IMG/VR virus record: IMGVR_UViG_3300028832_000111
DNA: 64,000 bases
From: a virus
Taxonomy: Duplodnaviria > Heunggongvirae > Uroviricota > Caudoviricetes
Reading direction: 5' to 3' (one strand)
The notes beneath the pieces are model-generated. The model saw nothing but the letters and a program-made list of their open reading frames with translations, was not told the DNA's origin and ran no database searches. Position 1 is the stretch's first letter. Every line of letters begins with the position of its first letter. The position numbers and the translations under genes were made by a program. Of the stretch, positions 3,311 to 63,263 are shown one piece after another.

Positions 3311-4780
3311 TCAGATGTTATTTTTTGCGTAATCGATATCCTTCTCGCAGAAGATGCCGTAGGCGTAACCCGTGCCGGTACGTTTGCGGTTCCCTCCCGT
3401 CTCATGCCATCCGAGACGTGCCATCTCACTGCCGAAAGCACGCTGCTTGACAGGATCCTGCAGCCACTTCTCGCAGAACGACACATAGTCCTCATAGAGA
3501 GCGGACGCAGGAACCCACTGGATACGGTCCTCCCAGTGTCCCGTGCGCCTGTTACATGAGTAGCCCTTCTTCTGTAGGAACACCTGCACCGTCTGACCGT
3601 TCTCCAGCATGTAGTCGGTCATCTCATCATCGGCGGCTTTGGTGGTGTTGAACTGATAGCCGTCACGTATGAGCATCTTATAGCCCTCTATCATCCAGTT
3701 GCGGATACCCGGCAGCTCCTTCAGCAGCTCCGACGAGAGCTCACGGTTCATGTCGGCGGCAGAGACGGTGGTCTTGAAAGGTATGAAGAGCAGACGGCGC
3801 ACGAGAGCCTGGTCCATACGCCGGTTCGTGGGCTTCTGGTTCATGTTGAACACAAGGAACGGTATGTCGAAGGTGGTCTCGGGGTTCTGACCCAACCTTC
3901 TCACGGTCTGCGGCTCACCCGAACAGAGGGACTTGAAGGTATCGGCGTAACGTGATATGTCATCCGCCTGTATCTCCGAGCAGTAGTTGAAGATCTTACC
4001 CACGATGCTCCCGATGAACCGCGCACGCACGTCCGACGAGCCGCTAAGCAGCGTATCGAGACCCACATAGCTGATGTTATCCGCACCGTACACCCCGCGT
4101 ACCACGTCGAAGATGGTGGACTTGCCGTTGGCACCCGACCCGATGAGCCACAGCGTCTCTTCAATCTTATGCGTCATGCTCTTACGGTCAGCACAGCCGA
4201 GACCGAGGTACTTCTGGAGCTTCATTATCTCACCCTTCGGCAAGATGGACTGCAGGAACGCCTGCCACTTCGGACAGCCCGCATCAGGGTCATAGTCGTA
4301 AGGGAGTATCCGCACCACAGGCATACGCTCGGCAAAAGAGTGATAGACCGGGTTGTCTATGTCAGTGAAATCCCATACGCCGTTACGGAATCCGATGACC
4401 GACGCACGCAACTCCAACGGTGACATCGACGCACCGCCACGTGCCGAATACAGAATCTTGCTCCTGGCATTCACGATATCCGACTTACGCGCTCCTCCCT
4501 GCACCAACGCCTTGCTCAACGCAGTCTCAAGCACAATATCAGCCAGAGGACACCATATCCTGCCGTCGAAGTAATATACATCACCCATGTAAGACCGGAA
4601 ACACTTGCTGCAGGCATCAAGGATGACCTCCTGATAGACATATACCCTGTCACCCGATGAATACAGCTTATAGGACTCCTTCAACGGAGCTTTGTTCAGC
4701 GAGTTGTAAATCAGCTTACTAAGGTCTTCAATAAGCGTGAAATTGTTGTTTTGTGTACCTTTACCCATATATAAAAACAA
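3311..4780 (-). CDS. D5/P4-family primase-helicase (SF3 helicase C-terminal domain)
   Basis: Walker A LIGSGANGKST followed by DD..FIGSIVGKIFNYCSEI and a PriCT/D5_N-like upstream region (CPKWQAFL). 489 aa. Confidence 0.8.
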   Translation of the reverse strand: MFLYMGKGTQNNNFTLIEDLSKLIYNSLNKAPLKESYKLYSSGDRVYVYQEVILDACSKCFRSYMGDVYYFDGRIWCPLADIVLETALSKALVQGGARKSDIVNARSKILYSARGGASMSPLELRASVIGFRNGVWDFTDIDNPVYHSFAERMPVVRILPYDYDPDAGCPKWQAFLQSILPKGEIMKLQKYLGLGCADRKSMTHKIEETLWLIGSGANGKSTIFDVVRGVYGADNISYVGLDTLLSGSSDVRARFIGSIVGKIFNYCSEIQADDISRYADTFKSLCSGEPQTVRRLGQNPETTFDIPFLVFNMNQKPTNRRMDQALVRRLLFIPFKTTVSAADMNRELSSELLKELPGIRNWMIEGYKMLIRDGYQFNTTKAADDEMTDYMLENGQTVQVFLQKKGYSCNRRTGHWEDRIQWVPASALYEDYVSFCEKWLQDPVKQRAFGSEMARLGWHETGGNRKRTGTGYAYGIFCEKDIDYAKNNI

Positions 4781-4931: not shown

Positions 4932-5399
4932 TCATACGCCAAAAACAGCCTTTTTTGAGGAAAAGCACCTCTTTTTGACCCCTATTTTCAGGGTATTTTG
5001 GGGCTTTTTCAGGCTTTTTTGACCCTTTTTCCATAGATACCCATGTATCAGACCATAATCAACGCGCAGACAAGGATACACGGCATCAGGACTGATATAT
5101 ATAGACCAGAAACACCGATTGAGATACACAGAAACATGTTCCGCATACGAAAAGTAAAAACGAAAAATGAAAAATTGAAAATCTCGGCGGGGGCTGACCC
5201 CCACGCAATACAAACGTATTTAGGGGGTCGGGGGTAGCCTTCTCTGGGTGGGGTATTCGCGCGGTTTTTCCTGCAAAACAAATACATTATAATTGTATTG
5301 TATCCGCTCGCGGTCGCGTTGTCGGTCCGTTGTGGGGTTTGTCGCTCCTTGCAACTTTTCCGCTTTATTGCCGTGTTGGTTGTGTGTTCATCGGTTTGC

Positions 5400-10796: not shown

Positions 10797-11789
10797 ATGT
10801 GTAATCCAAAAGTTTATGTCGGTACTTGGGGTAAGTACAACAACGGCAGCATCGCGGGCGGATGGGTTTCTCTCGCGGATTGTGAGAACTACAATGCGTT
10901 TATCTCGAAGTGCAAAGAACTGCACAAGAACGAGAGCGATCCGGAGTTTATGATTCAGGACACCGAGGATTTCCCTGACGGCCTCTCCTGTTCGGATTGG
11001 CTGGGTGAGGAGGATTTCAACGACATCAAGGCGGCTCTGAAAACCGACGGGCCTGACCTGAGAATCGTAGAATATTCAGAGAAATGCTTCGCGGTTGTGG
11101 GTGACACGTTCACTTACCGCGAGCAGCTGAAGAAACTCGGGGCTTGGAAGTTCAACAAGTTCCTCTCCTGCGGAGCGGGCTGGCTGTTCAATAACGACAA
11201 GCGCGAGGCTGTGGAGGCGTTCATCGGAGGCGGAGCATCACATATTACCGCCAAGGTCGAGAAGACTGCCAAGAAGGACGAGAAGTTCATCACGTGGCTC
11301 AGCGAGTTTCTTGACACCGAGTGCAAAGATGACAAGTCAGACCGCGACTACTACAGCAAGGGATGTGTCGGAGCGGTGAAGATTGACGGACATTTCTACT
11401 TGATAACCAAGCCGTCAATAGACAACCGCTTCTGCTTCCATGACGAAGGACCGGACTATAAGTTCTATTGCGAGCTGATGAAAGACGAGAGTAAACTCCG
11501 TCAGTATTTCATCCAGCAGAACGAAAGCGCCTTCACTCGCTCCATTGAGAGCATCGAGAAGGGTGAGACACTGCGTATCGCTGAGACAGGTTACAAGAAC
11601 AAGCTCGATTTCCTTATCGGCAGGTCGTGGTACAACAACGAAGGCCATGAGGCGAGCAAGGAGGAACGCGCCCTCATCCTTGACGGTCTGAAGTTCGGGC
11701 TGGAGAAGTTCCGCAAACGTCTCGACGCCTACCTCAACCGCTACGGGGTGAGCAAGATCCACACTTGGACTTACTGGGCCGATGCGTGA
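10797..11789 (+). CDS. ardA: ArdA-like antirestriction N-terminal domain protein (330 aa)
   Basis: N-terminus KVYVGTWGKYNNGSIAGGWVSL...EFMIQDTEDFP matches the conserved ArdA start (VYIANLGKYNEGELVGAWF...EYAIHDYELP in Tn916 ArdA). Acidic overall. Confidence 0.6.
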   Translation: MCNPKVYVGTWGKYNNGSIAGGWVSLADCENYNAFISKCKELHKNESDPEFMIQDTEDFPDGLSCSDWLGEEDFNDIKAALKTDGPDLRIVEYSEKCFAVVGDTFTYREQLKKLGAWKFNKFLSCGAGWLFNNDKREAVEAFIGGGASHITAKVEKTAKKDEKFITWLSEFLDTECKDDKSDRDYYSKGCVGAVKIDGHFYLITKPSIDNRFCFHDEGPDYKFYCELMKDESKLRQYFIQQNESAFTRSIESIEKGETLRIAETGYKNKLDFLIGRSWYNNEGHEASKEERALILDGLKFGLEKFRKRLDAYLNRYGVSKIHTWTYWADA

Positions 11790-21549: not shown

Positions 21550-21720
21550 TAATTATTACATACGAACGCCGTGAGGCGCATAGTTGTAGTATTTAAAGAG
21601 TTAAACAGATGCGTACTCATTGACATGGGTGCGCATCACTTTTCCAAAGGACAAATCCCACGTCCTGGAGCTGATTGAGTGACATCAGCTGCTCCGCCAA
21701 TAATAACTCAAACAATCATT

Positions 21721-23097
21721 ATGGATTACACTTACAAGTTAGAACAGGTGCTCAGGGTTCATAAGATTGAACCGCTGAGCTGGAGAGTCACGAAAGGACC
21801 CAGCGTCACCCTGTATGAGTTCAGACCGGATATGGGTGTGAATATGACACGTGTACGCAGACTCGCTGATGAGTTTGCCTTGGCGGTCGGTACGGAGTCG
21901 GTACGCATCATGGGACCGCTCGCAGGCGGTACGATTGGCATTGAGGTTCCCAACTTCCAACGTCAGATAGTACACATGGACAGCGTTCTGCATCATGTCG
22001 ATTACGAGTCCTGCAGGATGGCACTTCCATGCGCCATAGGCAAGACGGTACAGGGAGAACTCTTCATCCGTGACCTCACACAGATGCCGCACCTGCTTAT
22101 TGCCGGTGCGACCGGTCAAGGTAAGTCGGTATGCCTGAACATGCTGCTGCTCTCACTGATGAGCAAGCGCACACCGGAAGAGATGCAGTTGGTGCTCATC
22201 GACCCCAAACAGGTTGAGCTCAACATCTACGCTCCTCTCTGGCACAAGTATCTCGCCGATGACATAGCCACGACCACAGAGGATGCTGTCGCTATCCTGC
22301 AGCGTGTCATTAACCTCATGGAGTACCGTTACACCCTTCTCTCGCAGAAAGGAGTACGTAACATCAAAGAGTATAATGACAAGCTCAACGGTGAAGACTA
22401 CATGCGTTACTGCATCGTGGTCATAGACGAGTATGCCGACCTTATTATGACAGCCGGGAAGGATATGGAGCGTATGATATGCCGTATCGCACAGAAAGCC
22501 CGTGCCGTCGGTATCCACATGATCATAGCCACGCAACGTCCGTCGGCGACCATCGTGACAGGAAACATCAAGGCGAACTTCCCGGTACGTATCGCGTTCC
22601 GCGTCGCATCGGGTATTGATTCGCGTGTCATCCTCGACCATACCGGTGCCGAGGACCTGATGGGTAAGGGTGATATGCTCTACTCAGACGGCATTGATGA
22701 CGTGCGCGTACAATGCGGATATGCAGATACGGAGTACATCGAGGATGCTATACTGCTCAACCTTGTCTGCAGAGGTACATTTACCGGTTCCGTGCTTGAC
22801 ATCCCGGGACAGGAGGATGCGCCATGTGTCACCGTTACTATCAAGGGACAACCCGAATGCCTCTTCCTGCAGGAGTCACAAGGCAGGACAGAGTTGACGC
22901 CACGTAACTTCGGTATGTTCCCCTTCCTTCTTACACGCCGTATGGCAATCGAGGACTTCCTCACGATGGTTGCGATAGGTGTCCTGGATAAGCCCACGGG
23001 CGAAGGTATGGATATGAGAGCCAGGATACTCATACGTGACCGTAAGGAGGTGCTGAGACGCTGTGAGGCGGCAAGAGCGGGTACACTGCGCCTGTAA
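21721..23097 (+). CDS. FtsK/SpoIIIE-family DNA-translocase-like ATPase (458 aa)
   Basis: Walker A LLIAGATGQGKSVCLN, Walker B VVIDEYADL and ATQRPS motifs. The start is the motif-associated ATG (MDYTYK) inside track ORF 21679..23097. Confidence 0.8.
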   Translation: MDYTYKLEQVLRVHKIEPLSWRVTKGPSVTLYEFRPDMGVNMTRVRRLADEFALAVGTESVRIMGPLAGGTIGIEVPNFQRQIVHMDSVLHHVDYESCRMALPCAIGKTVQGELFIRDLTQMPHLLIAGATGQGKSVCLNMLLLSLMSKRTPEEMQLVLIDPKQVELNIYAPLWHKYLADDIATTTEDAVAILQRVINLMEYRYTLLSQKGVRNIKEYNDKLNGEDYMRYCIVVIDEYADLIMTAGKDMERMICRIAQKARAVGIHMIIATQRPSATIVTGNIKANFPVRIAFRVASGIDSRVILDHTGAEDLMGKGDMLYSDGIDDVRVQCGYADTEYIEDAILLNLVCRGTFTGSVLDIPGQEDAPCVTVTIKGQPECLFLQESQGRTELTPRNFGMFPFLLTRRMAIEDFLTMVAIGVLDKPTGEGMDMRARILIRDRKEVLRRCEAARAGTLRL

Positions 23098-23283: not shown

Positions 23284-24126
23284 ATGAACGGAATTTTAAG
23301 TTTTGAGCAGGAGTTTGTCAGAAGACAACCCAGCTATGCGCATATCCTTCGGTATATGCGTGATGCGATAGGCGTTCAGGAGGTGCAGTGGAGCGACCTC
23401 ACGACGCTTAACCTGTCCGAGATGAGGGATAATATCTGTGACAACGTAGCCGGTAATACGGCATGTACCTATCTCGCCGTATTGAAGGCTTTCCTTTCCG
23501 CTTATCTGGATGAGAATTTATTCCCCTGTAAGAATCCCGGGAAGGAATTGAAGGCTAAGAGAGTGCCGTCACAGAACGTCTATCTCACGGAAGAGGAGAT
23601 AGAGCGTATCGAACGATATGTTCCCCATAATGACACGGAACGGGACATCAAGGCGGCTTTCCTCATCGAGTGCTACTGCGGTGCCAGGACGTCCGATGTC
23701 AAGTCATTCACCGAGCATAACATCATTGACGGCAGACTGTGTTATGTGAGTCAGAAGACGAAGGTGGAGAGCTCCATACCGATACATCGCAACCTCATGC
23801 GTTACCTGCAGTACAAGCCCACCGGCGAACATAACAGAGCCGTTTATAACGATGTCATCAAACGTATCTGTCGCCGATGCGGTATCAGTCAGGAAACCAA
23901 GATATTCTATCACGGTAAGACGCAGACGCGACCCAAGTACGAGTATGTCGGGAGTCATACGGCCCGGAGATCCTTCGCCACCAACCTGACTCTGCGCGGT
24001 GTGCCGCGTGCCGTCATCTGCGCCCTGATGAACCACAACAAGAACGAGAACATGACATCACGTTACATCTGCGTGGATGCCGATAATCTCGACTTGAGCG
24101 GTATGGGGTTCTTCACCGGCACATAA
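23284..24126 (+). CDS. small tyrosine site-specific recombinase (280 aa). Integrase/invertase family.
   Basis: C-terminal catalytic region GSHTARRSFATNL...LMNHNKNENMTSRYI contains the R..H..R..Y signature. Confidence 0.75.
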   Translation: MNGILSFEQEFVRRQPSYAHILRYMRDAIGVQEVQWSDLTTLNLSEMRDNICDNVAGNTACTYLAVLKAFLSAYLDENLFPCKNPGKELKAKRVPSQNVYLTEEEIERIERYVPHNDTERDIKAAFLIECYCGARTSDVKSFTEHNIIDGRLCYVSQKTKVESSIPIHRNLMRYLQYKPTGEHNRAVYNDVIKRICRRCGISQETKIFYHGKTQTRPKYEYVGSHTARRSFATNLTLRGVPRAVICALMNHNKNENMTSRYICVDADNLDLSGMGFFTGT

Positions 24127-28307: not shown

Positions 28308-28338
28308 TACATTATGTGGGTATTGTTACCCAAAGACA

Positions 28339-28995
28339 ATGGTTAGCGAAGTGTTCAATACAGACTGCTTAGCCTATATGAAGACGCTTCCAGACGCATT
28401 CTTTGACCTTGCGATAGTGGACCCGCCGTATCAGCTCAAGAAATCCTCTGTTCAAGGGAGCGGGAAACTTAAGAATCGCACCCTCAACCGCCATGATATG
28501 AGTTGGGATGTTGCACCCCCCACAGAATATTGGAAGGAGTTATTCCGCGTCAGCAAGAACCAGATTATCTGGGGAGGTAACTACTTTCCCTTACCTCCTT
28601 GCCGTTGCTTTGTCATCTGGGATAAGCAGCAGGTATGGGAGAACTTCAGTCAATGTGAGTTTGCCTGGACGTCATTTGATAAACCAGCCAAACTGATCAC
28701 AATATCCAACCGAGGCGGTCACATCGACAAGGTTGTATGGCATCCCACCTGTAAACCAATAGAACTATACGCCTATCTGCTAAAGACCTTCGCAAAGCCG
28801 GGTGACAAGATATTCGACAGCCATCTTGGAAGTGGTTCAAGCCGCATCGCTGCCTATAAGATGGGGTTTGACTTCTACGCTTGTGAGATAAGCAAAGAAT
28901 ACTATGACCTCCAGGAAGAGCGGTTCAGGGAGGAATGCCTCGGAGAGACCAAATTGCAAGACGGCACCACAATCACACAACTCGAATTATTCTGA
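28339..28995 (+). CDS. DNA methyltransferase, beta-class N6A/N4C (218 aa)
   Basis: IVDPPYQ...HPTCKP...FDSHLGSGSS. Divergent from the neighbouring MTase. Confidence 0.85.
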   Translation: MVSEVFNTDCLAYMKTLPDAFFDLAIVDPPYQLKKSSVQGSGKLKNRTLNRHDMSWDVAPPTEYWKELFRVSKNQIIWGGNYFPLPPCRCFVIWDKQQVWENFSQCEFAWTSFDKPAKLITISNRGGHIDKVVWHPTCKPIELYAYLLKTFAKPGDKIFDSHLGSGSSRIAAYKMGFDFYACEISKEYYDLQEERFREECLGETKLQDGTTITQLELF

Positions 28996-29048
28996 AATGG
29001 AAATACAATACCCACATATTGTTTGCTACTGCCGGTTACAATATCATT

Positions 29049-30086
29049 CTATTGTTGTTCCTCTCCAAAATCAATCCTTTGCTGAAGGAATGTCTCAGCA
29101 TACCATTCGTCATAGGATTTCCCGCTGATCCACCATTGGAAGATGTTCTCACATATCTCGTCTTCCGTACCATTGCCGAAATAGTTCTCTGTCAGGATAT
29201 TCTTTGCGATACCCTGCTCGCGTATCCGCTTGATGGCATTTATCCAGTTGCGCTTGACATGGGGGTAATCCGCCAATTCGATGAGTTTCTGCTTATAATT
29301 TGCCATAGGACAGCAGATACATCCGATACGTTTATATCCTCTGTCATATAGCGAGCAGTGAGGCACTTTCACAACTTCGTTGAGAAAATACCAGACATCA
29401 GACTCAGACCAGTCTATTATCGGATTGACAATGATTTTATCCTTGCCGCCGATACATCTGATTTGTTCCTCGTCTTGTTCACTGAATTGGTCCTGGTTGA
29501 GATGCTGAATCTTCTTGGCAATCTTCTCTTTTCTCCACGTCTCGAAGGCATCGAGGTCCCCGGAGAAGGAGCTGTTGCTAACTTCAACGCTGTTACGTTT
29601 GGAGCGTCTGATGCTTTCCTGTCTGCGTACACCTGTAAGACAGACCGTACCGGCACCTCCAGTCTCTTTAAGAATGGCACAGCACCATCTAATGATACGT
29701 GAAGGCAGCAGATATTTCCCGTTTACGGCAATATTGTAGATGCTGTCCTCGGGTGCATGAGTTATGACATCAGGATAATGTTCGCGACAGAAGCGAATAA
29801 CCTCTGGAGGGTCAATACTCGTAAAGTTCATGTGAGCCTGAAACTTGACACCTGCAAGTTTGGCGATGTGATATAATGCTTGGGAATCCTTGCCTGCTGA
29901 GAAGGCTAAATAGAATCCGTCATCAGGATCATATTGCAAAGCGAGTTTTTCTGCTTTCTTCAACAAATTGATAGACCACTGAAGACGTTCATCAAAACCT
30001 GCCGGTTTCTTTTTTCGATACATTAGAATGATATTGTTTTTCTCCGGGCCGTATATGTCATACAGCCTTCCTGTTGAACAAAGCAA
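29049..30086 (-). CDS. PAPS-reductase-family PP-loop protein (345 aa), DndC/phage PAPS-reductase-like
   Basis: PP-loop LAFSAGKDSQAL and a C-terminal Cys cluster GCICCPMANYK. Confidence 0.75.
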   Translation of the reverse strand: MLCSTGRLYDIYGPEKNNIILMYRKKKPAGFDERLQWSINLLKKAEKLALQYDPDDGFYLAFSAGKDSQALYHIAKLAGVKFQAHMNFTSIDPPEVIRFCREHYPDVITHAPEDSIYNIAVNGKYLLPSRIIRWCCAILKETGGAGTVCLTGVRRQESIRRSKRNSVEVSNSSFSGDLDAFETWRKEKIAKKIQHLNQDQFSEQDEEQIRCIGGKDKIIVNPIIDWSESDVWYFLNEVVKVPHCSLYDRGYKRIGCICCPMANYKQKLIELADYPHVKRNWINAIKRIREQGIAKNILTENYFGNGTEDEICENIFQWWISGKSYDEWYAETFLQQRIDFGEEQQ

Positions 30087-38829: not shown

Positions 38830-38841
38830 TGCTGTTTAATG

Positions 38842-40878: not shown

Positions 40879-40884
40879 AGGTCA

Positions 40885-41501: not shown

Positions 41502-41675
41502 GACCATATAGTCAGCGGGGAGGCTGTCAAACCGCCCCGCTTGCTGCAGATGACTTTACTTCCAAGTAACTAACGAATCCAGAAACCTCCGCACCACATC
41601 GTCTGCAGACCCGCCGCGCATACATCACTGCATACGGGACCGGATAAACCAAATAAAAAAGAAATGCCAGTTAGC

Positions 41676-42116: not shown

Positions 42117-42571
42117 TCCGTCTCGTCTTCTTCAAGTTGAATAAAATGAACGCCTCTCGTGGCGTTCTTGTTCTTGATACAATTGGTTATTGTCATATAT
42201 GGGATACCAACCTTATCCGAGCATTCACGTATGGACTTGAATACCTGTCCGGTCTCAACGCACAACACAGGTCGTTTCCATACATAGCTCTTCTTCGGTT
42301 TCTCCTCCACCTCCTCCTCAATCGGCTCTTCAGGAGGTTCTTCGATATGTTTCTCCAGGGATTTCTTCCATCTGTTCCTGGATTTGACTATCTCTATCTC
42401 CACCTGCTCGGCTGTAAGAAGCACAAACCGGCTAATGTCGAATATCGACAGCTCACAGTCCGGACCATTCATAACCTTTATGGTTACGAGGTCATCAAGA
42501 TCCTCGCTGAAATACGAGTTGACATGCCTACCGTGAACAAAAACCGATACGAAATAGTTGTGTTTGTGCAT
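42113..42571 (-). CDS. DNA-binding protein with a NUMOD-like module (152 aa)
   Basis: PVLCVETGQVFKSIRECSDKVGIPYMTITNCIKNKNATRGVHF matches the C-terminal module of the HNH endonuclease at 30058. Confidence 0.5.
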   Translation of the reverse strand: MHKHNYFVSVFVHGRHVNSYFSEDLDDLVTIKVMNGPDCELSIFDISRFVLLTAEQVEIEIVKSRNRWKKSLEKHIEEPPEEPIEEEVEEKPKKSYVWKRPVLCVETGQVFKSIRECSDKVGIPYMTITNCIKNKNATRGVHFIQLEEDETE

Positions 42572-42591
42572 AACCCAGACAGATATAATCG

Positions 42592-43110
42592 TTAATACCT
42601 GATGCTTGTGAAATGAATTACAGCCAGAGGTTTGGAGAGGTCATACCGACGGAACCATTCCATCCAATCCTCAATTTTCAACCCATCGTTATATGCCAGA
42701 AGCTCCTTGCTTACGGATTTGCCGTCAATCTCTATCAGGTTCAAGGAATGCATACCATCCCTGTCAACATCGAACTGCAGTTTCTGTATTCCGATGCCGT
42801 CAGCTTTGGTGAGCACAGCCAGTTGAACCTGTTTGGAAGCGTAAGGCTTACCTGACCACTGACGTATAGACAGCTGGGCTTGACCGGCATCTATCTTTTC
42901 AAAGCGCTTACGCCATAATTCGTAATTGGCACGAATGGTATGACGCTTCCACCAATGGTCAAGCCACTTGTGGGTCGCGGCGGTGAACTTATGCTCGAAG
43001 TCGGTGGGCTCACCGGCGCGTTTATGTGTCACAGGGAAAGTCTGTGATAAAGTAATTACATACGTATTCATCCCTTCTCTCAAAAAGAAAGCCCTACACC
43101 GCAATGGCAC
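42592..43110 (-). CDS. hypothetical protein (172 aa)
   Basis: ORF. Confidence 0.6.
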   Translation of the reverse strand: MPLRCRAFFLREGMNTYVITLSQTFPVTHKRAGEPTDFEHKFTAATHKWLDHWWKRHTIRANYELWRKRFEKIDAGQAQLSIRQWSGKPYASKQVQLAVLTKADGIGIQKLQFDVDRDGMHSLNLIEIDGKSVSKELLAYNDGLKIEDWMEWFRRYDLSKPLAVIHFTSIRY

Positions 43111-43145
43111 GGCATAGGGCTTTCCAACAACAAAATGGTGTACGG

Positions 43146-43655
43146 TTAATTTTCCTTTTTCTCAGCACTCTTCAGATGCTTATCCTTCTCCAGCACATCC
43201 AGGATACGGGTCTTCACGACATCGGCTATCTCATAGTCGGCGTTTGAACCCTTGTAAATCTCGTCACCGATTGCCTTGCGAGCGTTCTCGTTGGAGTCAG
43301 ACTGGACAAGATAATAGTGCGATACGGTCTTGGTCTTGGTGCGGGTGCCACCCTTACGGGTTCTTACCTCTACCTCCTCCTTCATATCAACCTTAACCTT
43401 GTACCAGTTCTCAGCTGCTGCGTCATCAGAGAAACAAATCTCACCGTACTTGGGGCGCAACATACCGCTCACGGTCTTGATAGGACGGTTGGAGTAGTTG
43501 AGCTCCTTGCGGATTCTCTCCTCACCGTCAATGAATGACGCTGCCTCAACTGTGTAGCGTTCTCTCACTGTCTTTGGCAACCCTTTGGGGGTTGTCTCTG
43601 TGATCTCGATGGTTGCTTCCATCCAAAAACCACTTCTACTTCTTAAACCTGCCAT
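43146..43655 (-). CDS. hypothetical protein (169 aa)
   Basis: ORF. Confidence 0.6.
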   Translation of the reverse strand: MAGLRSRSGFWMEATIEITETTPKGLPKTVRERYTVEAASFIDGEERIRKELNYSNRPIKTVSGMLRPKYGEICFSDDAAAENWYKVKVDMKEEVEVRTRKGGTRTKTKTVSHYYLVQSDSNENARKAIGDEIYKGSNADYEIADVVKTRILDVLEKDKHLKSAEKKEN

Positions 43656-43685
43656 ACTATAGATATTTAGTTAAACAATAGGTTT

Positions 43686-44099
43686 CTATGAGAACAAGTC
43701 CGGTGTCACCACCGTCTTCTGATTGATAATCTTGATATATTCAGGGTTCAGTTCATACCCTATGAAGTTGCGATTGTACTTACGGGCGACCCTGGCTGTC
43801 GTGCCACTTCCCATAAACGGGTCAAGCACCAGGCCACCTTTCGGACATCCGGCAAGGATGCAAGGTCTGATGAGCTCTTCGGGATAGACAGCGAAATGAG
43901 CCGCCTTCTCAGGTTTGGTGGCTACACTCCATACATCCCTTTTGTTTCTGACCGGATATTGCTGGTCCGGCAATCCGGCAGCACGTCTGATATGCATCGA
44001 ATTGGGTTGCTGTCCATCATCCTGAAGGTTCTTGAACCTCCATCGCTGATGCCCGTGCGTAGCCATCGTCTGCCTGTTACCCGAAGGCATTATAGGCAT
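43686..44099 (-). CDS. C-terminal half of a beta-class DNA methyltransferase (motif I region). Currently a split gene.
   Basis: RDVWSVATKPEKAAHFAVYPEELIRPCIL...LVLDPFMGSGTTARVARKYNRNFIGYELNPEY. The motif IV (SPPY) half is missing here and lies on the opposite strand at 44106. Confidence 0.8.
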   Translation of the reverse strand: MPIMPSGNRQTMATHGHQRWRFKNLQDDGQQPNSMHIRRAAGLPDQQYPVRNKRDVWSVATKPEKAAHFAVYPEELIRPCILAGCPKGGLVLDPFMGSGTTARVARKYNRNFIGYELNPEYIKIINQKTVVTPDLFS

Positions 44100-44102
44100 A
44101 TT
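44090..44102. repeat. left inverted repeat TTATAGGCATATT of the invertible segment
   Basis: Perfect reverse complement of 44619-44631. Extends to 17 bp with 2 mismatches. Confidence 0.8.
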
Positions 44103-44618
44103 GTAATGGAAATCAACAAAGTTTTCAATGAAGACTGCCTCACCGGAATGAAAAGCCTTCCTGACAACTGCGTTGATTGCTGTGTCACCTCACCGCCATA
44201 TTTCAATCTGCGAGACTACGGTATTGACGGTCAGATAGGTCTGGAGAAGTCACCAGAAGAGTATATCGACAGACTCACCGAAGTATTCACGGAAGTGTTT
44301 CGCGTTCTTAAACCGGAAGGAACGCTCTGGCTGAACCTCGGAGATAGCTATGACAATGCAAAAAGTCTTATCGGTATTCCCTGGATGGCGGCTTTCGCAC
44401 TAAGAGACCGTATCGGATTCCGTCTGAGAAATGACATCATCTGGCATAAGCTGAATCCGCAGCCCGAAAGCATCAAAGACCGCTGTACGAAGGCACATGA
44501 ATATATATTCCTGATGTCAAAACAGGAGAAGTATTTCTTTGACCATGAAGCCATACAGGAGATAGCAACCGGTTATGACGGTCGCAAGGATACCATAATG
44601 CATGGCTCTAAGAAATAT
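44103..44618. mobile_element. putative invertible DNA segment (516 bp) carrying the 5' half of the methyltransferase gene
   Basis: Flanked by perfect 13 bp inverted repeats. Inversion joins ...HGSKKYNMPI to MPSGNRQ... in frame, giving a complete MTase of about 320 aa. Confidence 0.6.
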
Positions 44619-44753
44619 AATATGCCTATAAAGTATGTCTTGATCAGAACGGGATATCTTCGTCTATCGGCGCATCAAAGGGTTTTTCATTATGTGGTGT
44701 TTCCGGCTGCTCCGCTCCAAAATCCAATTCCTGCTGATTCTGCTGCGTCTTGA
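44106..44753 (+). CDS. N-terminal half of the same DNA methyltransferase (motif IV region) on the opposite strand
   Basis: MEINKVFNEDCLTGMKSLPDNCVDCCVTSPPYFNLRDYG...KAHEYIFLMSKQ. Runs out of the segment through the right repeat into unrelated sequence that overlaps the primase gene. Confidence 0.75.
   Translation: MEINKVFNEDCLTGMKSLPDNCVDCCVTSPPYFNLRDYGIDGQIGLEKSPEEYIDRLTEVFTEVFRVLKPEGTLWLNLGDSYDNAKSLIGIPWMAAFALRDRIGFRLRNDIIWHKLNPQPESIKDRCTKAHEYIFLMSKQEKYFFDHEAIQEIATGYDGRKDTIMHGSKKYNMPIKYVLIRTGYLRLSAHQRVFHYVVFPAAPLQNPIPADSAAS
44619..44631. repeat. right inverted repeat AATATGCCTATAA
   Basis: Reverse complement of 44090-44102. Encodes N-M-P-I in both gene halves. Confidence 0.8.
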
Positions 44754-46557
44754 TATTCTCAATTACATAATTGCTGTTATCCCACTTCACTTTATCCATG
44801 TCGGGAGCCACACGCTTCGCGTCCATAGTGGGAATCTCAACGAACCGGGCGTTATTGAAGTTATAGACGAAAGTGTCATGTCCTTTCTGTCCCATGTGAC
44901 GGAACTTCATCTTGGTCACATGCACCTCACCGTAATTACCCTGCTCGTTTCTCCATACGGTGATGCCGATATCAGCCTTGTCGTATATCTCAGATGCACC
45001 CTTACATGAGTACAGGTCACAGACCGGATATAAGCCGTTATCCTGCTTGTATTGTTTGGTGGGATGCATGACGATGAACATTGCAACGTCATACTTCCTG
45101 GCGAACCATCGTATCTTCTGCAGGAAGTCCGAAATATATTCATCCTGCTTGTATATCGTTCGCTTCTCGTCTGTCAGCGAATTGAAAGGGTCAATCACAA
45201 ACGCCTTGATACCTCTCTTGCGGATGAGGAACTTGGCTCTGTCCAAGACTGAGCTTATATCCGTGTCATCAGGATCCACCCAAAAGAAATTCTTGTTGAC
45301 ATACTCCTTCAGGATGCCGTAAGTCTGAGGCGTATAGTTCTGGGATGAGAACCTTTTACCTCCAAGCGTCTCTATGATTTGGGATATATGCAGCGCTACA
45401 GGATAGAACTCAGGAGAGAAGAACGCCACCTTCCATGAGTGAAGGATATTGAGTCTGATCAGAGCGAAATTCAACCATTGGGTTTTGCCGTGCGAAGGGA
45501 TTCCTGTAACGACCGTCACCATTCCGGTATTGAAGGACAGAAGTTTATCCATATCCTCCAATCCCAGGGTTACTCCCTTTTGAAGTCCCGAAGTAAACAG
45601 GTTGTCAAGGTCTGACTCTATGTCAACAAGTTCCTCGACACCTTGGATTCTAATATCCGCAGCACCCTCGAAGCATTCCTTTACCTTCTCCGGTCCATAT
45701 TTGACAAGAACCTCGTTTATATCCTTGCAGTCTTCCGGATACTCAACTATCTTACATACTTCAGCTCCAAACCTTCGTACTATCTCATTCTTGGCTTCAA
45801 CACCCTTCTTGTCACTGTCTGTCGATACATAAATCAGTTCAAGTTTATCAAAGTGGGATTCGGTGAAGTCATCCATCCATTCCAGATTGGTGTTAGCACC
45901 GGACGGCATGGATATGACATGCTTATAGCCGCATTCGATATAAGTGAGAGTATCCGCTTCACCTTCAGTGATGATGCAGATTTTCTTTTCACCCTTCTTG
46001 AATGCGCTCTCTCTTATGCTGTCTATGTTATAGGGGACTACCTTGGCACCGGCAATGAATGCGAAATGCTTGTCCCTTGTGCGATATTTGGTGTTGATAT
46101 GCTCGTCATCAACATAGTAGTTGAAAGCGATACATCCGCGCTTGCAATTGTCTTGCGGGAAAAAGAAATTCTCCTTTGTGACCTTCGCCTCAAGAAGTGT
46201 CTTCTCGCTGATGCCGCGCCCTTTGAAATACTCAACCATGTCCGCATTGAGCTTAGGTTGAAGGTTGGGCTTGACCGAGGGTTTGCGATAAGTCTTGGAC
46301 ATCTGTCTTGTTTCCCTGTCTATTCTCCGCATCATTTCCTCATGCCGGGATTTCAGATAACCGCTCGCACCGCAATAATGGCAGTTATATGCCAGGGTCG
46401 CGCAGTTTATCGAAAGGGATTTATCCCTCTTGTTTCCACGATTCTCATGGCAGAAAGGACAGAAGGTTTTTATGTTACCTGATGACCTGCTGCCTAAGAC
46501 GTGTCTGAAATCCTCTACATAAAGAATATTGTCGCTCATCTGTTGCTCTTGATCCAA
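44644..46557 (-). CDS. T7 gp4-like bifunctional primase-helicase (zinc-ribbon, TOPRIM and DnaB-family helicase domains; 637 aa)
   Basis: CPFCHENRGNKRDKSLSINCATLAYNCHYCGASG zinc ribbon, TOPRIM ICIITEGEADTL, helicase Walker A VTGIPSHGKTQWL. Confidence 0.85.
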   Translation of the reverse strand: MDQEQQMSDNILYVEDFRHVLGSRSSGNIKTFCPFCHENRGNKRDKSLSINCATLAYNCHYCGASGYLKSRHEEMMRRIDRETRQMSKTYRKPSVKPNLQPKLNADMVEYFKGRGISEKTLLEAKVTKENFFFPQDNCKRGCIAFNYYVDDEHINTKYRTRDKHFAFIAGAKVVPYNIDSIRESAFKKGEKKICIITEGEADTLTYIECGYKHVISMPSGANTNLEWMDDFTESHFDKLELIYVSTDSDKKGVEAKNEIVRRFGAEVCKIVEYPEDCKDINEVLVKYGPEKVKECFEGAADIRIQGVEELVDIESDLDNLFTSGLQKGVTLGLEDMDKLLSFNTGMVTVVTGIPSHGKTQWLNFALIRLNILHSWKVAFFSPEFYPVALHISQIIETLGGKRFSSQNYTPQTYGILKEYVNKNFFWVDPDDTDISSVLDRAKFLIRKRGIKAFVIDPFNSLTDEKRTIYKQDEYISDFLQKIRWFARKYDVAMFIVMHPTKQYKQDNGLYPVCDLYSCKGASEIYDKADIGITVWRNEQGNYGEVHVTKMKFRHMGQKGHDTFVYNFNNARFVEIPTMDAKRVAPDMDKVKWDNSNYVIENIKTQQNQQELDFGAEQPETPHNEKPFDAPIDEDIPF

Positions 46558-50226: not shown

Positions 50227-51039
50227 TTACGGCATTTCCGGTTTCTCCTTCTTTTCCTTGCGCATCCTTTCCTTCTTGTTGTCTGCGCTCTCTTCAACGG
50301 GCTTGTTGTTCTCTTCCGGGTTATCGACATATTCCACTTCAGCATTGTCAATCTCCTCGACGCTACCCATCTGAGTGAAGTCACCCTTAGCGATACCCTG
50401 GTCATACTTGATGGCACGCTGCATCTCGATAGACAGGATACCGAACTTGGAGAGGAGCAACTTCATCACGGTCTTGAGACACATAGCCTCTGTGTTGTCC
50501 TTCCAAGGACCGGAGTTGAAAGACTTGGAGTATTTCTTGCCATGAGCCAGGACTTCAGCCTCAGTCATATAGAAATACTTCTCATATCCGTCAACCATAC
50601 GGAAGTATGCCATATAACCGATAACCTTGTCGCTTGTGCGTTTGGTCGGGTCAAACTCGTAGTCATCAGTGAAGGGGTTATACTTCACAAGCTCTCCCTC
50701 ATGTACAACGGCGTTGGTTATTCTGAGGTACTGACCGCTACGTATGGCGAGCTGAATCAAGCCACGGGTCATAATCTGGAACTGAGCGACCTGTCCGTAG
50801 GGGACGATGGCGGCAAAGCCGAGATTGGGGTTAATGGGGAGGTCGAGACTGGCTGCAACCATAGCGCTTGAATAAACACTCTGAGGTGATGCCTTCTGCA
50901 GTAATGTGTTGTTGTTGACAACAGACAACACACTGGTCACGAAACCTTGCGCTTTCTGACCGAGCATGGAGCGCAGGTTGTTCATGCATGTTTCGTTGTT
51001 GAAATAGCCGCGCAGGGCTACTACGTTTGAATTAGCCAT
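50227..51039 (-). CDS. recT: RecT-family single-strand annealing protein (270 aa)
   Basis: Overall RecT-like pattern (...GFAAIVPYG...YMAYFRMVDGYEKYFYMTEAEVLAHGKKYSKSFNSGPWKDNTEAMCLKTVMKLL). Confidence 0.8.
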   Translation of the reverse strand: MANSNVVALRGYFNNETCMNNLRSMLGQKAQGFVTSVLSVVNNNTLLQKASPQSVYSSAMVAASLDLPINPNLGFAAIVPYGQVAQFQIMTRGLIQLAIRSGQYLRITNAVVHEGELVKYNPFTDDYEFDPTKRTSDKVIGYMAYFRMVDGYEKYFYMTEAEVLAHGKKYSKSFNSGPWKDNTEAMCLKTVMKLLLSKFGILSIEMQRAIKYDQGIAKGDFTQMGSVEEIDNAEVEYVDNPEENNKPVEESADNKKERMRKEKKEKPEMP

Positions 51040-54673: not shown

Positions 54674-55810
54674 ATGAAGATAGCAAAAACAAGGGTTGTC
54701 TTTGACAGACACAACACCGCGACCCGCAAGACGGCGGCATCAGTCTATATCGAGGTCTCTTATGACCGGGTACGCAACTTCTACAACACCGGGATACGTC
54801 TGTGCGCCGGTCAGTTCAAGGATGGTAGAGTCATCAACCACGGACAGATGGCGGAGTATCAGCAACGCATCAATGACATGCGCTCCGAAATCGAGGATTA
54901 CATCACCGCCAAGATCAAGGCGAAGGAAGAGTTCACCCTTGAAGGGCTCAAACAGTTTATGGACGGCCGTGTCACCGGCACCAAGGATTCGTTCCTGCGT
55001 TTCATGCTCAAGCGCATCAACGAACGTCCGATAAAGGAAACCACAAGGAAATCCCAGATGTCCGTTTACAACACATTGCGCAGGTGGGGGCATATAAGGC
55101 AGTTCGGTGACATCACAGACGCCAACATAAGGCTGTGGGATGACCTGGCGCATCAGAACGCCGAGAAGAGGAAATCCGTCTGGAACTACCATAAGATTCT
55201 CAAGATATACATACGTGAAGCTATCGAGTTCGGTCACATCACTGACAACCCATATACACGGATCAAGCCCCAACGTGACAACCCGACCGGTCATCGGTAT
55301 CTGACACAAGAGGAGCTGGACCGGATAAAGTCACTTCCCTTACCTGAGAAGCCTCTGCGTGATGCGCGTATGTGCTTCCTGTTCCAGTGTTATACAAGTA
55401 TGGCCTATGCAGACATGAAGGTGTTCGACATAGCCAATGCCAGGAGCATCGGAGGGCGTCTGCGTATGAGGGACAACCGCGTCAAGACAGGCGAGGAGTA
55501 TAACATCACGCTTCTCAAGCCGGTGCTTGACATACTCAAGGAATGCAATTATCGTCTGCCGGTTCAGAGTGACCAGTATTACAACCGCAACCTGCAGGTG
55601 ATACAGTTCCGCGCCGGGATCCAGACGCATCTCACGTCACACGTGGGACGTCATACCTTCGCCACGTCGATAGCGCTCAAGAACAAGATACCTGTCGAGG
55701 TGTTGCAGAAGATAATGGGACACAACAGCATCAAGACAACACAGATATATGCCAAGGTGCTGCAGGAGTCCGTTGACGAGGCGTTTGACCAGCTTAACGC
55801 CATCTTATGA
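54674..55810 (+). CDS. int: tyrosine integrase (378 aa)
   Basis: C-terminal HVGRHTFATSIALKNKIPVEVLQKIMGHNSIKTTQIYAKV (R..H..R..Y). N-terminal SAM-like domain. Confidence 0.85.
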   Translation: MKIAKTRVVFDRHNTATRKTAASVYIEVSYDRVRNFYNTGIRLCAGQFKDGRVINHGQMAEYQQRINDMRSEIEDYITAKIKAKEEFTLEGLKQFMDGRVTGTKDSFLRFMLKRINERPIKETTRKSQMSVYNTLRRWGHIRQFGDITDANIRLWDDLAHQNAEKRKSVWNYHKILKIYIREAIEFGHITDNPYTRIKPQRDNPTGHRYLTQEELDRIKSLPLPEKPLRDARMCFLFQCYTSMAYADMKVFDIANARSIGGRLRMRDNRVKTGEEYNITLLKPVLDILKECNYRLPVQSDQYYNRNLQVIQFRAGIQTHLTSHVGRHTFATSIALKNKIPVEVLQKIMGHNSIKTTQIYAKVLQESVDEAFDQLNAIL

Positions 55811-56364: not shown

Positions 56365-56860
56365 GGCTCTTGCGTTTATTGTGAAGAACTTCCATCACCT
56401 CGTCTTCGGGTATCCCCAGCTTGCTGGCAATCTCACCCGTGAGGGATTTGGACATGAGTTTTAAGAACGGGAAATCCGGGAAGAGGATGAGCATCGAAGC
56501 TGATGAGCTCCAGAGCTCCACGAGGCAGATGGCACCTCCGATGACCTTGGCCGTGACGGTGGAGTCAATGAACTTGTCCAGACCCACGAAGACGAAGAGG
56601 GCACAGCCATAGACAGCGAGCTTTCCTATGGTGTTCCTCAGCAGCTCCGACAGCGTGAATTTCTTTTCCTTTATCGACACCGAGATACCCCAGATGGCAT
56701 CCATGAATGTGGTGGCGATCACAAGAAAAACCACAAACTTATGCTCTGCGAAATATTCGCATACACATAAGGCGATAGTGAGAACCTTACCGTAGGCTGA
56801 AGAGATAGCTGCTCCGATCTTGGACACGGCGTGTTTGATGACGATGCTGATAGGTTGCAT
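56345..56860 (-). CDS. holin-like multi-pass membrane protein (171 aa)
   Basis: 3-4 predicted TM helices, immediately downstream of the endolysin. Confidence 0.5.
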   Translation of the reverse strand: MQPISIVIKHAVSKIGAAISSAYGKVLTIALCVCEYFAEHKFVVFLVIATTFMDAIWGISVSIKEKKFTLSELLRNTIGKLAVYGCALFVFVGLDKFIDSTVTAKVIGGAICLVELWSSSASMLILFPDFPFLKLMSKSLTGEIASKLGIPEDEVMEVLHNKRKSHEEESN

Positions 56861-57384
56861 TATTGCTGAAATGTGAAGTGGGACAATCGGTTCATCCAGC
56901 CGTTCCAGAACACTTGCTGAGAGGGTTTGGCGGCGACGATGTTACGATAATACTCGGTACGTGCATCCATCACCTTGCAGAACACACATTTGTATGGCTC
57001 TTTGTTGAGCGCAGCCAGCGTCTTGGGTCCGAAGATACCGTCTGTGACGAGTCTCAGAGCCTGCTGCACTCCCTTACGACCATTCACACCCGAGTTGACA
57101 CACCAATCGGCGACCAGGTTGGCCACCGACTGATTCTTGATGTCATCACCCTTGACCGCATCCCAATAGACTTTCATAATCCTCTTCCATTGTGCGTTGG
57201 TCATGTTACGGAGGTCATCCACTGTCTTGTCTTTCCCGAAGATGGTCTTGAATGTGGTAAGGGTTACTCCAGCATTGGTTGGCCCACCCTTATCTGCAGG
57301 GTGATCAACGAATCCACCCTCCACTTCCTTGAGAATCGGTGCGTAAAGTTCAAATCGAGCCATAATCGTTCGTATTATCTTCAC
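56860..57384 (-). CDS. endolysin, GH108 N-acetylmuramidase with a peptidoglycan-binding domain (174 aa)
   Basis: EGGFVDHPADKGGPTNAGVT catalytic motif. C-terminal PG_binding_3-like region. Confidence 0.8.
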   Translation of the reverse strand: MKIIRTIMARFELYAPILKEVEGGFVDHPADKGGPTNAGVTLTTFKTIFGKDKTVDDLRNMTNAQWKRIMKVYWDAVKGDDIKNQSVANLVADWCVNSGVNGRKGVQQALRLVTDGIFGPKTLAALNKEPYKCVFCKVMDARTEYYRNIVAAKPSQQVFWNGWMNRLSHFTFQQ

Positions 57385-61520: not shown

Positions 61521-62064
61521 CCCAAGGATATTGCGGATAATTTTGATCAGGAATCCATACTGGTAGGTCCTTCAAAACGTCCTCTCTACCTTTTCTGAAT
61601 TGCACCTCATCAGAGTTCTTGTATGCCTGGTTAATCTCCGCATCAATCTCAGGCTGAAGCTCTTGGCGGGCGAGTCTAAGAAGTCTTTTTGAATAGGAGT
61701 GCATATATTCTATATCCTCATCGGTGTATTTCGATATATCCTCACCTATAGGAGAACCATTCTCTACCATTATCTTGATAAGCTCCTTCTCAAAATCCGT
61801 CAGTTCTGGCTCATCGGTAAGGATAAGCAAATCGTTTCTGTATCCATGTAAGCATCCATCCGATTCTTTTCCGTTTTCATCATATGTAAAAACAACCTCA
61901 TTTCCAGCTTGAGAAGTAACAAGTCCCACTATTTTCCAATATGTTGTGTTCCTATCCCAACAAATAATTCTTACGTTAAGCCCTTCTGCGGTCATAACTT
62001 TATATTTGCCGCTCTCGATCTCCGGGCGATACTTTATGTCAAACGGAATCTTCTTCATAATCAC
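61435..62064 (-). CDS. hypothetical protein (209 aa), paralog of 39420..40007
   Basis: Shared N-terminal domain MKKIPFDIKYRPEIESGKYKVMT. Confidence 0.6.
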   Translation of the reverse strand: MIMKKIPFDIKYRPEIESGKYKVMTAEGLNVRIICWDRNTTYWKIVGLVTSQAGNEVVFTYDENGKESDGCLHGYRNDLLILTDEPELTDFEKELIKIMVENGSPIGEDISKYTDEDIEYMHSYSKRLLRLARQELQPEIDAEINQAYKNSDEVQFRKGREDVLKDLPVWIPDQNYPQYPWDALEHGVLYHEGHRITLDDLWNKLPKEE

Positions 62065-63263
62065 ATACTGAGAAGATGGAACTGATTCTCATCAAGCTGA
62101 GAACTGTATGAGCCATAGATATTGACAAGGCCCGGAATAGCGAACGATATATGACCAAGGAAATGGCTGATAGAGTCACAAGCGAACACGCCATCAGAAT
62201 GAATGCACGGGACCTGGTTGATAGAATGCAGACAATCCAGGTGCGTCAGAGCAACATTCAGCTTGATGTTGTGCTCGTTGATGTAGTTATCCAGCCTATG
62301 CCTATCATATACTCGTTCCAATAGCTTGAAGTCAAACAGTCCGCATTTGAAAACACCCTGGTAATCATCAAACGGATTGGTCGGCTCTTCAAGCGTCATA
62401 TATGGTTCCAGCATATCCGGTCTGCTCGGAACATAACCGTTGCCATGACGGGTAAGATAGGTACGCATGACGAGATATACTTCAGCTTCCTTCAGGAACT
62501 CTTTGCTGATTCCGTTCAGTCCGGTCCTCGAAGGAGTGCAATGCGGCATGAAACCGCAATCCATATCCAACAGCAAACCCTGTGAGCCCTCGAAGATATA
62601 GACAGCCCGGTCATCATCGTAATCGTAGAACGTGCCATGTGCAATAGATGCATCACCGTCATATTCCACAATATCACGAAGCTGTTGACAGCATTGAACG
62701 AACTGCGCCTCCAGTTCATCATTGCGCTCACAACCGTAATATCTTCTTGTCCTTTCAAGATGCTCTTTCGGATGTCTGATGACGTAAGAGAATGCGTTGT
62801 TCGTTTCCCATGTATCAAAGGGGTTATACAAACCTTCACCGCAACGTTTGATGGTATGGAATATACCCATTCCGCAGCTGCCATGTCCGAGAACCAGAGA
62901 ATCATTGACGTTCGCCATGACATCATAAGGTGTCGTTACGCGGCACATGTGGTTGATGCTTATATCAGGTGTCACACCTTTGGCAAGCAGGCTCTCATAT
63001 TCGGATATCATGCATATAGGATCCACGATAACATGACGGTCAAGATATGTTGGGACGCCAAGCAATACTCCGGCACCGAAAGAGCTGCATACGTGCTCCT
63101 TCCCGTTGGTTATGATGCGATGTCCAGCCTGCTGACCACCGGAGAAGCGTATGACGATAGGGTTGTCCCCACGGTCAAGGGCTTGTTTGCAAAGCCATTG
63201 AACCGTAGAGCCTTTACCCTCGTCACCGAAGAATGTACCAAGAACAATCTGGGTTTTCATCAC
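62061..63263 (-). CDS. adenylosuccinate-synthetase (PurA)-family enzyme (400 aa); candidate PurZ-type
   Basis: GDEGKGS P-loop, SGGQQAGHR, FEGSQGLLLDMDCGFMPHCTPS and MRTYLTRHGNGYVPS align with the corresponding PurA motifs, with substitutions at GDEGKGK to GDEGKGS and GGHNAGH to GGQQAGH. Confidence 0.75.
   Translation of the reverse strand: MMKTQIVLGTFFGDEGKGSTVQWLCKQALDRGDNPIVIRFSGGQQAGHRIITNGKEHVCSSFGAGVLLGVPTYLDRHVIVDPICMISEYESLLAKGVTPDISINHMCRVTTPYDVMANVNDSLVLGHGSCGMGIFHTIKRCGEGLYNPFDTWETNNAFSYVIRHPKEHLERTRRYYGCERNDELEAQFVQCCQQLRDIVEYDGDASIAHGTFYDYDDDRAVYIFEGSQGLLLDMDCGFMPHCTPSRTGLNGISKEFLKEAEVYLVMRTYLTRHGNGYVPSRPDMLEPYMTLEEPTNPFDDYQGVFKCGLFDFKLLERVYDRHRLDNYINEHNIKLNVALTHLDCLHSINQVPCIHSDGVFACDSISHFLGHISFAIPGLVNIYGSYSSQLDENQFHLLSM

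Follow-up and report, generated by a model that had tools for sequence, protein, structure and literature searches.

The stretch of DNA analysed here (the window) comprises 64,000 nucleotides (nt) of a Caudoviricetes phage, IMG/VR record IMGVR_UViG_3300028832_000111. It carries an N6/N4 DNA methyltransferase gene, which we call M1, as two halves on opposite strands (Table 1). The C-terminal half, with the S-adenosylmethionine-binding motif, is fixed in the direction of the surrounding operon, and the N-terminal half, with the catalytic SPPY motif, points the other way. The 516-base-pair (bp) segment holding the SPPY half is bounded by a perfect 13-bp inverted repeat, TTATAGGCATATT at 44090-44102 and its exact reverse complement at 44619-44631. 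An original prediction, made from the letters of the window alone, had described this arrangement, and its coordinates, halves and strands were all confirmed. When the 18-mer M1 site was searched allowing up to three mismatches, the two arms were the only matches in 64 kilobases (kb), against a chance expectation of approximately 0.03. As the segment stands in the window, the N-terminal half (ATG at 44106) reads through the right arm and continues antisense into the 3' end of the neighbouring helicase gene.

Reversal of positions 44103-44618 in silico generated a single uninterrupted open reading frame (ORF) of 309 amino acids on the minus strand, with the junction ...HGSKKYNMPIMPSGNRQT.... 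The expectation of one in-frame enzyme thus held, while the length given for it, about 320 amino acids, was slightly too large. The flipped product matches the Pfam family PF01555 (N6_N4_Mtase) in one stretch from profile position 1 to 220 of 221 (E = 1e-56), scoring 192.7 bits with a curated cut-off of 26.7; the separate halves cover profile positions 1-133 and 113-220. SPPY at residues 29-32 precedes DPFMGSGTT at residues 265-273, which is the canonical motif order of beta-class N6A/N4C methyltransferases and had been anticipated. The flipped gene shares the strand of all its neighbours, and its start codon follows the primase-helicase stop codon by 29 nt. One arm is thereby placed in the short leader between the helicase gene and the start codon, the other at codons 172-175.

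The fused form exists in nature. A protein from a large collection (P0015) is identical, residue for residue, to the 309-residue product obtained in silico. It is encoded on contig L369 of ENA assembly ERZ27257203 (7,759 bp), which is 100% identical to window positions 37001-44102 (7.1 kb) and to the flank past the right arm, and which holds the counterpart of 44090-44631 at 100% identity in the opposite relative orientation. Its hybrid arms are exactly those predicted for an exchange within the 13-bp core, with the breakpoint inside the core. The first orientation-specific base comes exactly 141 nt after the start of the contig, a distance equal to the assembly k-mer length, as expected if the assembly graph branched at the inverton because both orientations were present in the sample. 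The split form was also assembled in ERZ27256849 (a 107,074-bp contig) and ERZ27257204, and the 215-residue product of the N-terminal half is an exact gene call in four other contigs. The exact products of the 137-residue C-terminal half and of the helicase were absent from the protein records looked up because gene callers picked different starts. A near-identity search against GenBank phages gave no match. With both orientations on record in otherwise 100% identical DNA, the proposal of a recombinase-driven ON/OFF inversion switch is supported.

An assembly artefact, that is a repeat-induced misjoin or a chimera, is exceedingly improbable as the origin of the split gene. At 13-18 bp the repeats are much shorter than the assembly k-mer (k141 in the ENA records), which makes a repeat-induced misjoin impossible. 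Moreover, the configuration was assembled independently from ENA, JGI, Logan and NCBI sources in many samples, and every inversion has two precise, in-frame junctions. The original prediction had itself raised the prospect of a single orientation produced by a misjoin; the flipped contig and the length of the repeats answer it.

Scans of viral, metagenome and genome collections yielded 12 distinct contigs, including the window, with close M1 homologues (65-90% amino-acid identity). All 12 carry the repeats at the same two positions, one approximately 21 nt ahead of the ATG and the other at the KY(N)IIPVM codons. M1 is fused (ON) in six of them (L001, L024, L025, L027, L104, L188) and split (OFF) in the other six (the window, L007, L008, L010, L064, L292), and flipping every split copy yields an intact ORF. 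This tally of half-length and full-length products was not drawn from the score-ranked protein list, which full-length matches dominate. On the gene tree the ON copies are intermingled with the OFF copies, and there are ON/OFF sister pairs (L001/L008 with 94.7% nucleotide identity, L104/L010 and L027/L064). Homologues in the form of independent half-genes without inverted repeats, a possibility that had also been foreseen, were not what these contigs contain. The repeats are absent from more distant M1 homologues (L026, L028, L105, L177 and others).

The same contigs bear on whether the split gene is a pseudogene left by a one-off mutational inversion between chance short repeats. The gene is interrupted and its perfect repeat in the window measures only 13 bp, as such an accident would leave it, yet 12 contigs keep the repeats at both positions, and the ON and OFF states are intermingled on the tree. 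Both halves show ratios of nonsynonymous to synonymous substitution (dN/dS) of 0.03-0.13 with saturated synonymous sites, also between two OFF copies; purifying selection this strong on both halves excludes a dead gene. The same phage occurs in both states, and flipping is also seen at two other window loci that follow this site grammar (see below). We regard a chance inversion as very unlikely.

Two further features of M1 sequences are of note. The window copy lacks a 37-residue stretch (AGSGKGSANYP...CKDKD) that all close relatives carry. A 516-residue relative (P0007) contains an insert of approximately 170 residues in the middle of its N-terminal half (...KDKDLMLIPFEV...SKGFYLRNDIIW...) that looks like an intein or a homing-endonuclease-like insert.

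Alignment of the arms defines a site of 18 bp, ACAWTA-N6-TAWTGT, whose central 6 bp agree between the two arms of a switch and differ from one switch to another. For M1 they vary by phage (CAGGAA, TAGGAA, CAGGTA, TAGGAG and TAGGCA) and are identical within each pair. The centre and the inner half-site, which faces the invertible DNA, are almost invariant, and the centre nearly always begins with T on its outer side. The outer half-site is degenerate, with 17 and 12 between-arm mismatches at its first and last positions in 40 pairs. Inner half-sites of the window phage read TATTGT in five of six cases and in a lone site (Table 1), and relatives use TAATGT. The 2.9 megabases (Mb) of fetched loci contain 27 perfect sites compared with 0.7 expected, all but one of them in this phage family, and 2.7 Mb of control loci contain no centre-matched inverted pair. 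Pair-specific centres would keep neighbouring switches from recombining with each other.

Sites of this design enclose two further genes in the window, one for a second methyltransferase (M2) and one for a PAPS-reductase-like protein. The original prediction had noted M1 as the one switch in the window; at least three are present. In the window M2 is antisense to both neighbours and therefore OFF, and the PAPS-reductase-like gene is co-oriented with the operon and ON. Contigs of the same phage (99-100% identity) contain both segments inverted in various combinations, with breakpoints exactly at the arms. M2 is co-oriented with its neighbours in L370, L373, L376, L377 and L378, and the PAPS-reductase-like gene is inverted in L370, L375 and L378. 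Relative to the window, L370 has both 29038-30037 and 28309-29022 inverted at 99.7-100% identity, and the 51 nt from 29005 to 29055, made up of two adjacent arms and a 15-nt gap, keep the orientation of the flanks. Only the PAPS-reductase-like segment is inverted in L375, and both segments are in L378. L371 and L376, which come from the same assembly (ERZ27257204), show the two M2 states. Since these combinations differ among contigs of one phage, the three switches of the window flip independently. Overall, inversions at the arms occur naturally, independently at each switch and in the same phage. Close M2 homologues in phages of approximately 107 kb from another large metagenome set have no sites, so the invertons are specific to a lineage and not a property of the gene.

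In three relatives the M2 cassette lies within two nested inverted pairs (L340 919-1683, L347 6913-7680 and L348 1411-2178), with the centre TGAAGG outside and TTTGTG or TTCGTG inside; on either side 29-34 nt separate the two pairs. L343 has lost one arm of the outer pair. The nesting suggests replacement of a cassette inside an existing inverton, or redundant switches. We rejected a fourth switch in the window at the imperfect inverted repeat 19628-19660/21571-21603, which has the same orientation in all five same-phage contigs that show it. This 33-nt repeat (82%) is the longest of its kind in the window. Its arms share a 25-nt motif, TAACTCTTTAAATAYTRYAAYTATG, that ends in ATG, and a weaker copy precedes the ATG at 5694; the motif looks like a repeated leader or promoter element. 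Two independent assemblies break near position 19565.

Related contigs carry as many as six switches; in L292 there are five pairs and, at the contig edge, an M1 arm. The cargo of every switch has an annotation of the DNA-modification type. Besides the 5' half of M1 (ON in 6, OFF in 6), the switches carry the 5' end of a C5 cytosine methyltransferase (ON 3, OFF 4), a radical-SAM-like gene with a weak, sub-threshold Pfam match (ON 1, OFF 5), the PAPS-reductase-like gene (ON 6, OFF 3), M2 (ON 6, OFF 2) and a 197-residue NPPY protein, a putative methyltransferase, which is known from one contig only (ON 1, OFF 0). All five inverton types found in more than one contig were seen in both orientations. 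The start codons of the cassettes are located 0-10 nt inside the inner half-site, too close for an internal promoter to fit, and whether a cassette is expressed should depend on how it is oriented with respect to the unidirectional operon around it. Relatives without sites have homologous modification genes that are all co-oriented with the operon, that is fixed ON, which indicates that the switches were imposed on pre-existing genes.

Two-polypeptide split methyltransferases such as M.AquI exist, and in all OFF copies of M1 both halves are intact and start with an ATG. The divergent halves could thus be subunits of a working enzyme, and the OFF form would then be active. This is improbable, as the N-terminal half in OFF copies runs antisense to a long operon whose genes all point one way, and with only 1-9 nt between the arm and its start codon no dedicated upstream region is conserved with it. 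Whole-gene invertons of the same system cannot work in this way, and a regular return to ON explains the conservation of both halves equally well.

We therefore interpret the split M1 as the OFF state of a programmed, reversible, site-specific DNA inversion, with a probability of about 90%. A recombinase would exchange strands in the shared core of the two arms, and the inversion would turn around the leader, the start codon and the catalytic N-terminal half. In the ON state intact M1 would be read within the minus-strand replication and modification operon. In the OFF state the catalytic half would lie antisense to the operon and only an inactive C-terminal fragment could be made. Such switching would diversify the DNA-modification pattern of the phage population and could be a form of bet-hedging, since modification blocks restriction in some hosts and is required for it in others. 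Two other mechanisms were discarded. Integron-like cassette insertion does not fit, as the two sites of a cassette are mutually inverted and two of the targets are partial genes. For RecA-type homologous recombination the repeats are too short, and unrelated switches share the binding arms but not the centres.

Two recombinases were found among the approximately 50 ORFs of the window by Pfam scan or precomputed Pfam calls, and both are of the tyrosine type. None of these ORFs matched the serine recombinase family (PF00239), a search that left small ORFs and the phage outside the window uncovered. We infer that the invertase is a tyrosine recombinase with a 6-bp overlap. The smaller enzyme, rec280, has the two-domain size of Xer-type proteins, without an arm-binding domain, and its catalytic residues R135, K158, H225, R228, H251 and Y261 are invariant in five homologues. 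It aligns over its full length with the XerA, XerC and XerD models at 24-38 bits, well below the cut-offs of 220-335. Its sequence points to a Xer-type way of working, but outside these curated families. The distance between the rec280 gene and the inverton array is 4-6 kb, both in the window and in each of the eight loci from other phages that have an array and include the gene. Directly upstream of rec280 is a gene for an FtsK/SpoIIIE-like translocase, an adjacency conserved in L337, L340, L343, L347 and L370-L374; by analogy, this protein may partner rec280 as FtsK does XerD. The original prediction had named rec280 as a candidate with nothing tying it to the M1 site. The two additional invertons 4-6 kb away now provide a circumstantial, unproven link, and on balance rec280 is, by slightly better than an even chance, the most likely invertase.

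Several points weigh against this picture or limit it. The M1 arms of the window are the most degenerate of the family, with three mismatches to the consensus, and their perfect core is 13 bp compared with 17-18 bp in relatives. This copy may therefore switch poorly; its shorter protein and degenerate arms may likewise reflect a changed target specificity or a slower switch. The pair search demanded identical centres, so centre identity is partly built into the wider survey, a requirement that does not apply to the repeats from unbiased repeat searches. Switching within a clone, its rate and its reversibility we infer from assemblies; the two states of L371 and L376 in one assembly, and contig ends at graph branch points, are suggestive of reversibility within the lineage. 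The biological purpose of switching, for which the original prediction had suggested evasion of methylation-dependent restriction or of BREX/DISARM-type defence, is conjecture. Finally, the assignment of the recombinase is weak, and int378 or a host enzyme are live alternatives.

The switch could indeed be real and driven by int378 or a host recombinase, with the Xer-like and FtsK-like proteins only resolving genome multimers, a serious possibility to which we give somewhat less than an even chance. Homologues of rec280 (41-64% identity) occur in eight loci without sites within 10 kb, so the gene is not specific to inverton carriers, and in one such locus (L337) no convincing alternative repeats were found. 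The int378 gene lies 10 kb from M1, and L188 has a syntenic homologue at its edge. Many distant invertons of gut Bacteroidales are known to be served by one host invertase, Mpi. Mpi is listed in PMC9881135. However, an int378 homologue is also present in a contig without sites near its rec280 gene, so int378 discriminates no better. The confinement of the sites to one phage lineage also counts against this alternative, and the phage's own half-site variant (TATTGT compared with TAATGT in relatives) fits an enzyme that travels with the phage. The dif-like layout suits a simple Xer-type enzyme better than an arm-binding integrase.

Taking rec280 as the invertase, we tentatively propose, as just under an even bet, that this virus carries a combinatorial epigenetic switchboard. 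Three independent invertons here and up to six in relatives would be operated by a phage Xer/FtsK-like module derived from genome-dimer resolution and would toggle separate DNA-modification enzymes; the progeny of one infection, with up to 8-64 modification patterns, would hedge between host defences. If confirmed, population-level diversification of virion DNA modification would be a new counter-defence principle. It would matter for host range and for the balance of classical against modification-dependent restriction, and also for the interpretation of phage methylomes from metagenomes. A split methyltransferase gene in a phage assembly may represent a switch state, not a pseudogene or an error, and a break between contigs may point to an inverton. 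The design of the site, with common binding arms and a private 6-bp centre for each switch, offers a natural template for orthogonal recombinase targets.

The lone perfect site at 5284-5301 is situated in a 900-bp intergenic region beside an AT-rich repeat block (5440-5600) and the primase gene. We speculate that it may serve the Xer-like recombinase as a resolution site of the dif/lox type, and that the invertons may have borrowed an enzyme whose primary target in dimer resolution is this site.

We take the phage to be a virus of gut bacteria, roughly 107 kb in length. Related IMG/VR contigs and the same-phage ENA contig measure 105-107 kb, and one relative was found in a Bacteroidaceae genome bin from red deer. 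In addition to the genes of Table 1 the window encodes an HNH endonuclease, and its DNA methyltransferases number four. With the anti-restriction-like protein, the four methyltransferases and the PAPS-reductase-like gene, the counter-restriction gene set is unusually dense. PHROG 1211, which the PurZ-like protein matches, is annotated by PHROGs as acting in modified-adenine synthesis; judging from this homology, the phage may alter its base composition besides methylating. A second FtsK/SpoIIIE-like ATPase (48136-50223) is fused to a PD-(D/E)XK nuclease domain and adjoins the RecT-like gene.

Table 1. Positions of the switches, candidate recombinases and other genes in the 64,000-nt window.
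Feature	Position	Strand	Remarks
M1 inverton, left arm	44087..44104	.	GCATTA-TAGGCA-TATTGT from outside to inside; perfect core 44090-44102
M1 inverton, right arm	44617..44634	.	reverse complement ACTTTA-TAGGCA-TATTAT; perfect core 44619-44631
M1 invertible segment	44103..44618	.	3-nt leader, start codon and codons 1-171; OFF here
M1 N-terminal half	44106..44753	+	SPPY catalytic motif; ORF and Pfam
M1 C-terminal half	43686..44099	-	S-adenosylmethionine-binding motif DPFMGSGTT; fixed, operon direction; ORF and Pfam
Second inverton, left arm	28309..28326	.	ACATTA-TGTGGG-TATTGT; breakpoint in L370, L373, L376, L377, L378
Second inverton, right arm	29005..29022	.	reverse complement ACAATA-TGTGGG-TATTGT
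Methyltransferase M2	28339..28995	+	218 amino acids, PF01555; whole gene within second inverton 28309-29022
Third inverton, left arm	29038..29055	.	ACAATA-TCATTC-TATTGT; 15 nt from right arm of second inverton
Third inverton, right arm	30020..30037	.	reverse complement ACAATA-TCATTC-TAATGT; ATG in TAATGT is the cassette start codon
PAPS-reductase-like gene	29049..30023	-	PF01507; whole gene within third inverton 29038-30037
rec280	23284..24126	+	280-residue simple (Xer-like) tyrosine recombinase; PF00589 match; leading candidate invertase
FtsK/SpoIIIE-like translocase	21679..23097	+	directly upstream of rec280
int378	54674..55810	+	378-residue integrase-type tyrosine recombinase, N-terminal SAM-like domain; alternative candidate invertase
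Lone perfect site	5284..5301	.	ACATTA-TAATTG-TATTGT; nearly palindromic centre; no partner in window
Primase	3311..4780		
Primase-helicase	44644..46557	-	
RecT-like protein	50227..51039		
GH108 endolysin	56860..57384		
Anti-restriction-like protein	10797..11789		N-terminus matches a PHROG annotated as anti-restriction, E = 2e-9
PurZ-like protein	62061..63263	-	400-residue adenylosuccinate-synthetase-family homologue; PHROG 1211, E = 4e-44

Bacteria are known to carry gene-altering or intragenic invertons, frequently in restriction-modification genes (PMC9881135, Milman et al. 2023; Chanin et al., bioRxiv 10.1101/2023.03.11.532203). The phage switches resemble them in having one arm outside the gene and one inside, so that the coding sequence is rewritten or interrupted, in targeting DNA methylases, which together with restriction-modification genes are common targets there, and in that variants coexist in populations. 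The bacterial cases were catalogued in chromosomes and are mostly domain swaps, whereas here the carrier is viral and the outcome plain ON/OFF. In further contrast, no recognizable restriction partner is present among the annotated neighbours and several switches share one site grammar.

Inversions in Type I hsdS genes give phase-variable methylation in Streptococcus pneumoniae (SpnD39III/PsrA) and Bacteroides fragilis (PMC4948785, PMC7672463, PMC7641763). As is proposed for the phage, inversions by tyrosine recombinases change methylation there and create epigenetically distinct subpopulations. However, in hsdS systems the half-specificity domains of a single subunit are exchanged between a copy that is expressed and copies that are silent, by way of long repeats in homologous genes. 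The phage toggles complete enzymes or catalytic halves at 18-bp core sites, and the genome modified is its own.

Phasevarions, in which phase-variable Mod methyltransferases switch randomly ON and OFF, share this random methyltransferase switching, but the mechanism differs and consists of simple-repeat slippage in bacterial genes. They are reviewed in PMC11868660.

Among phages, the best-known inversion systems are of another kind. Serine invertases, Gin on the G segment of Mu and Cin on the C segment of P1, flip tail-fibre segments and give mixed progeny. Both are cited in PMC9881135. As in Mu and P1, the invertible segment is phage-borne, the recombinase is probably phage-encoded, and a constant part of the gene lies outside with the rest inside. 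The sites of Gin and Cin measure 26 bp and have a 2-bp crossover; both enzymes require Fis and an enhancer, affect host range and serve one segment per phage. In contrast, the phage described here has no serine recombinase that we found, a dif-like 6-bp centre, DNA-modification cargo and 3-6 switches per genome.

The sites themselves recall XerC/XerD-dif. The inner arms of dif read CATAA-N6-TTATG; its arms are inverted around a 6-bp centre, the inner parts are the most conserved and one arm is better conserved than the other (PMC2731167). Like dif, and like Cre-loxP, the phage sites have two inverted arms around a 6-bp centre (CATTA/TAATG here) with one arm better conserved, and as in the Xer system an FtsK-family translocase is encoded beside the recombinase. 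On the other hand, dif is a single site per replicon that becomes a direct repeat on dimers and leads to resolution, whereas the phage sites mostly form inverted pairs with pair-specific centres and lead to inversion. Their recognizable arms are only 6 bp, and rec280 scores far below the curated Xer thresholds.

Gut Bacteroidales carry multi-locus invertible promoters under Mpi or Tsr, with a shared repeat consensus and combinatorial population heterogeneity (PMC10403206). Many invertons with a common repeat consensus in one genome are a shared feature. Mpi, a serine recombinase, inverts promoters of fixed surface-structure genes, while the phage inverts promoter-less genes or gene halves against a fixed operon.

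Methyltransferases go unmentioned in a 2026 methods paper that does no more than suggest "potential viral invertons" (PMC13501310). In the full-text literature searched, outside which most subscription journals fall, we found no phage that phase-varies its own DNA-modification genes and no such orthogonal inverton array. If true, the switchboard would make this the first phage for which programmed phase variation of self-modification is described, and would provide a natural case of orthogonal recombination sites made by varying only the 6-bp overlap. Phase-variable methylation is known from bacteria and phage inversion from tail fibres; this phage, which would itself randomize the set of DNA-modification enzymes that it expresses, joins both.

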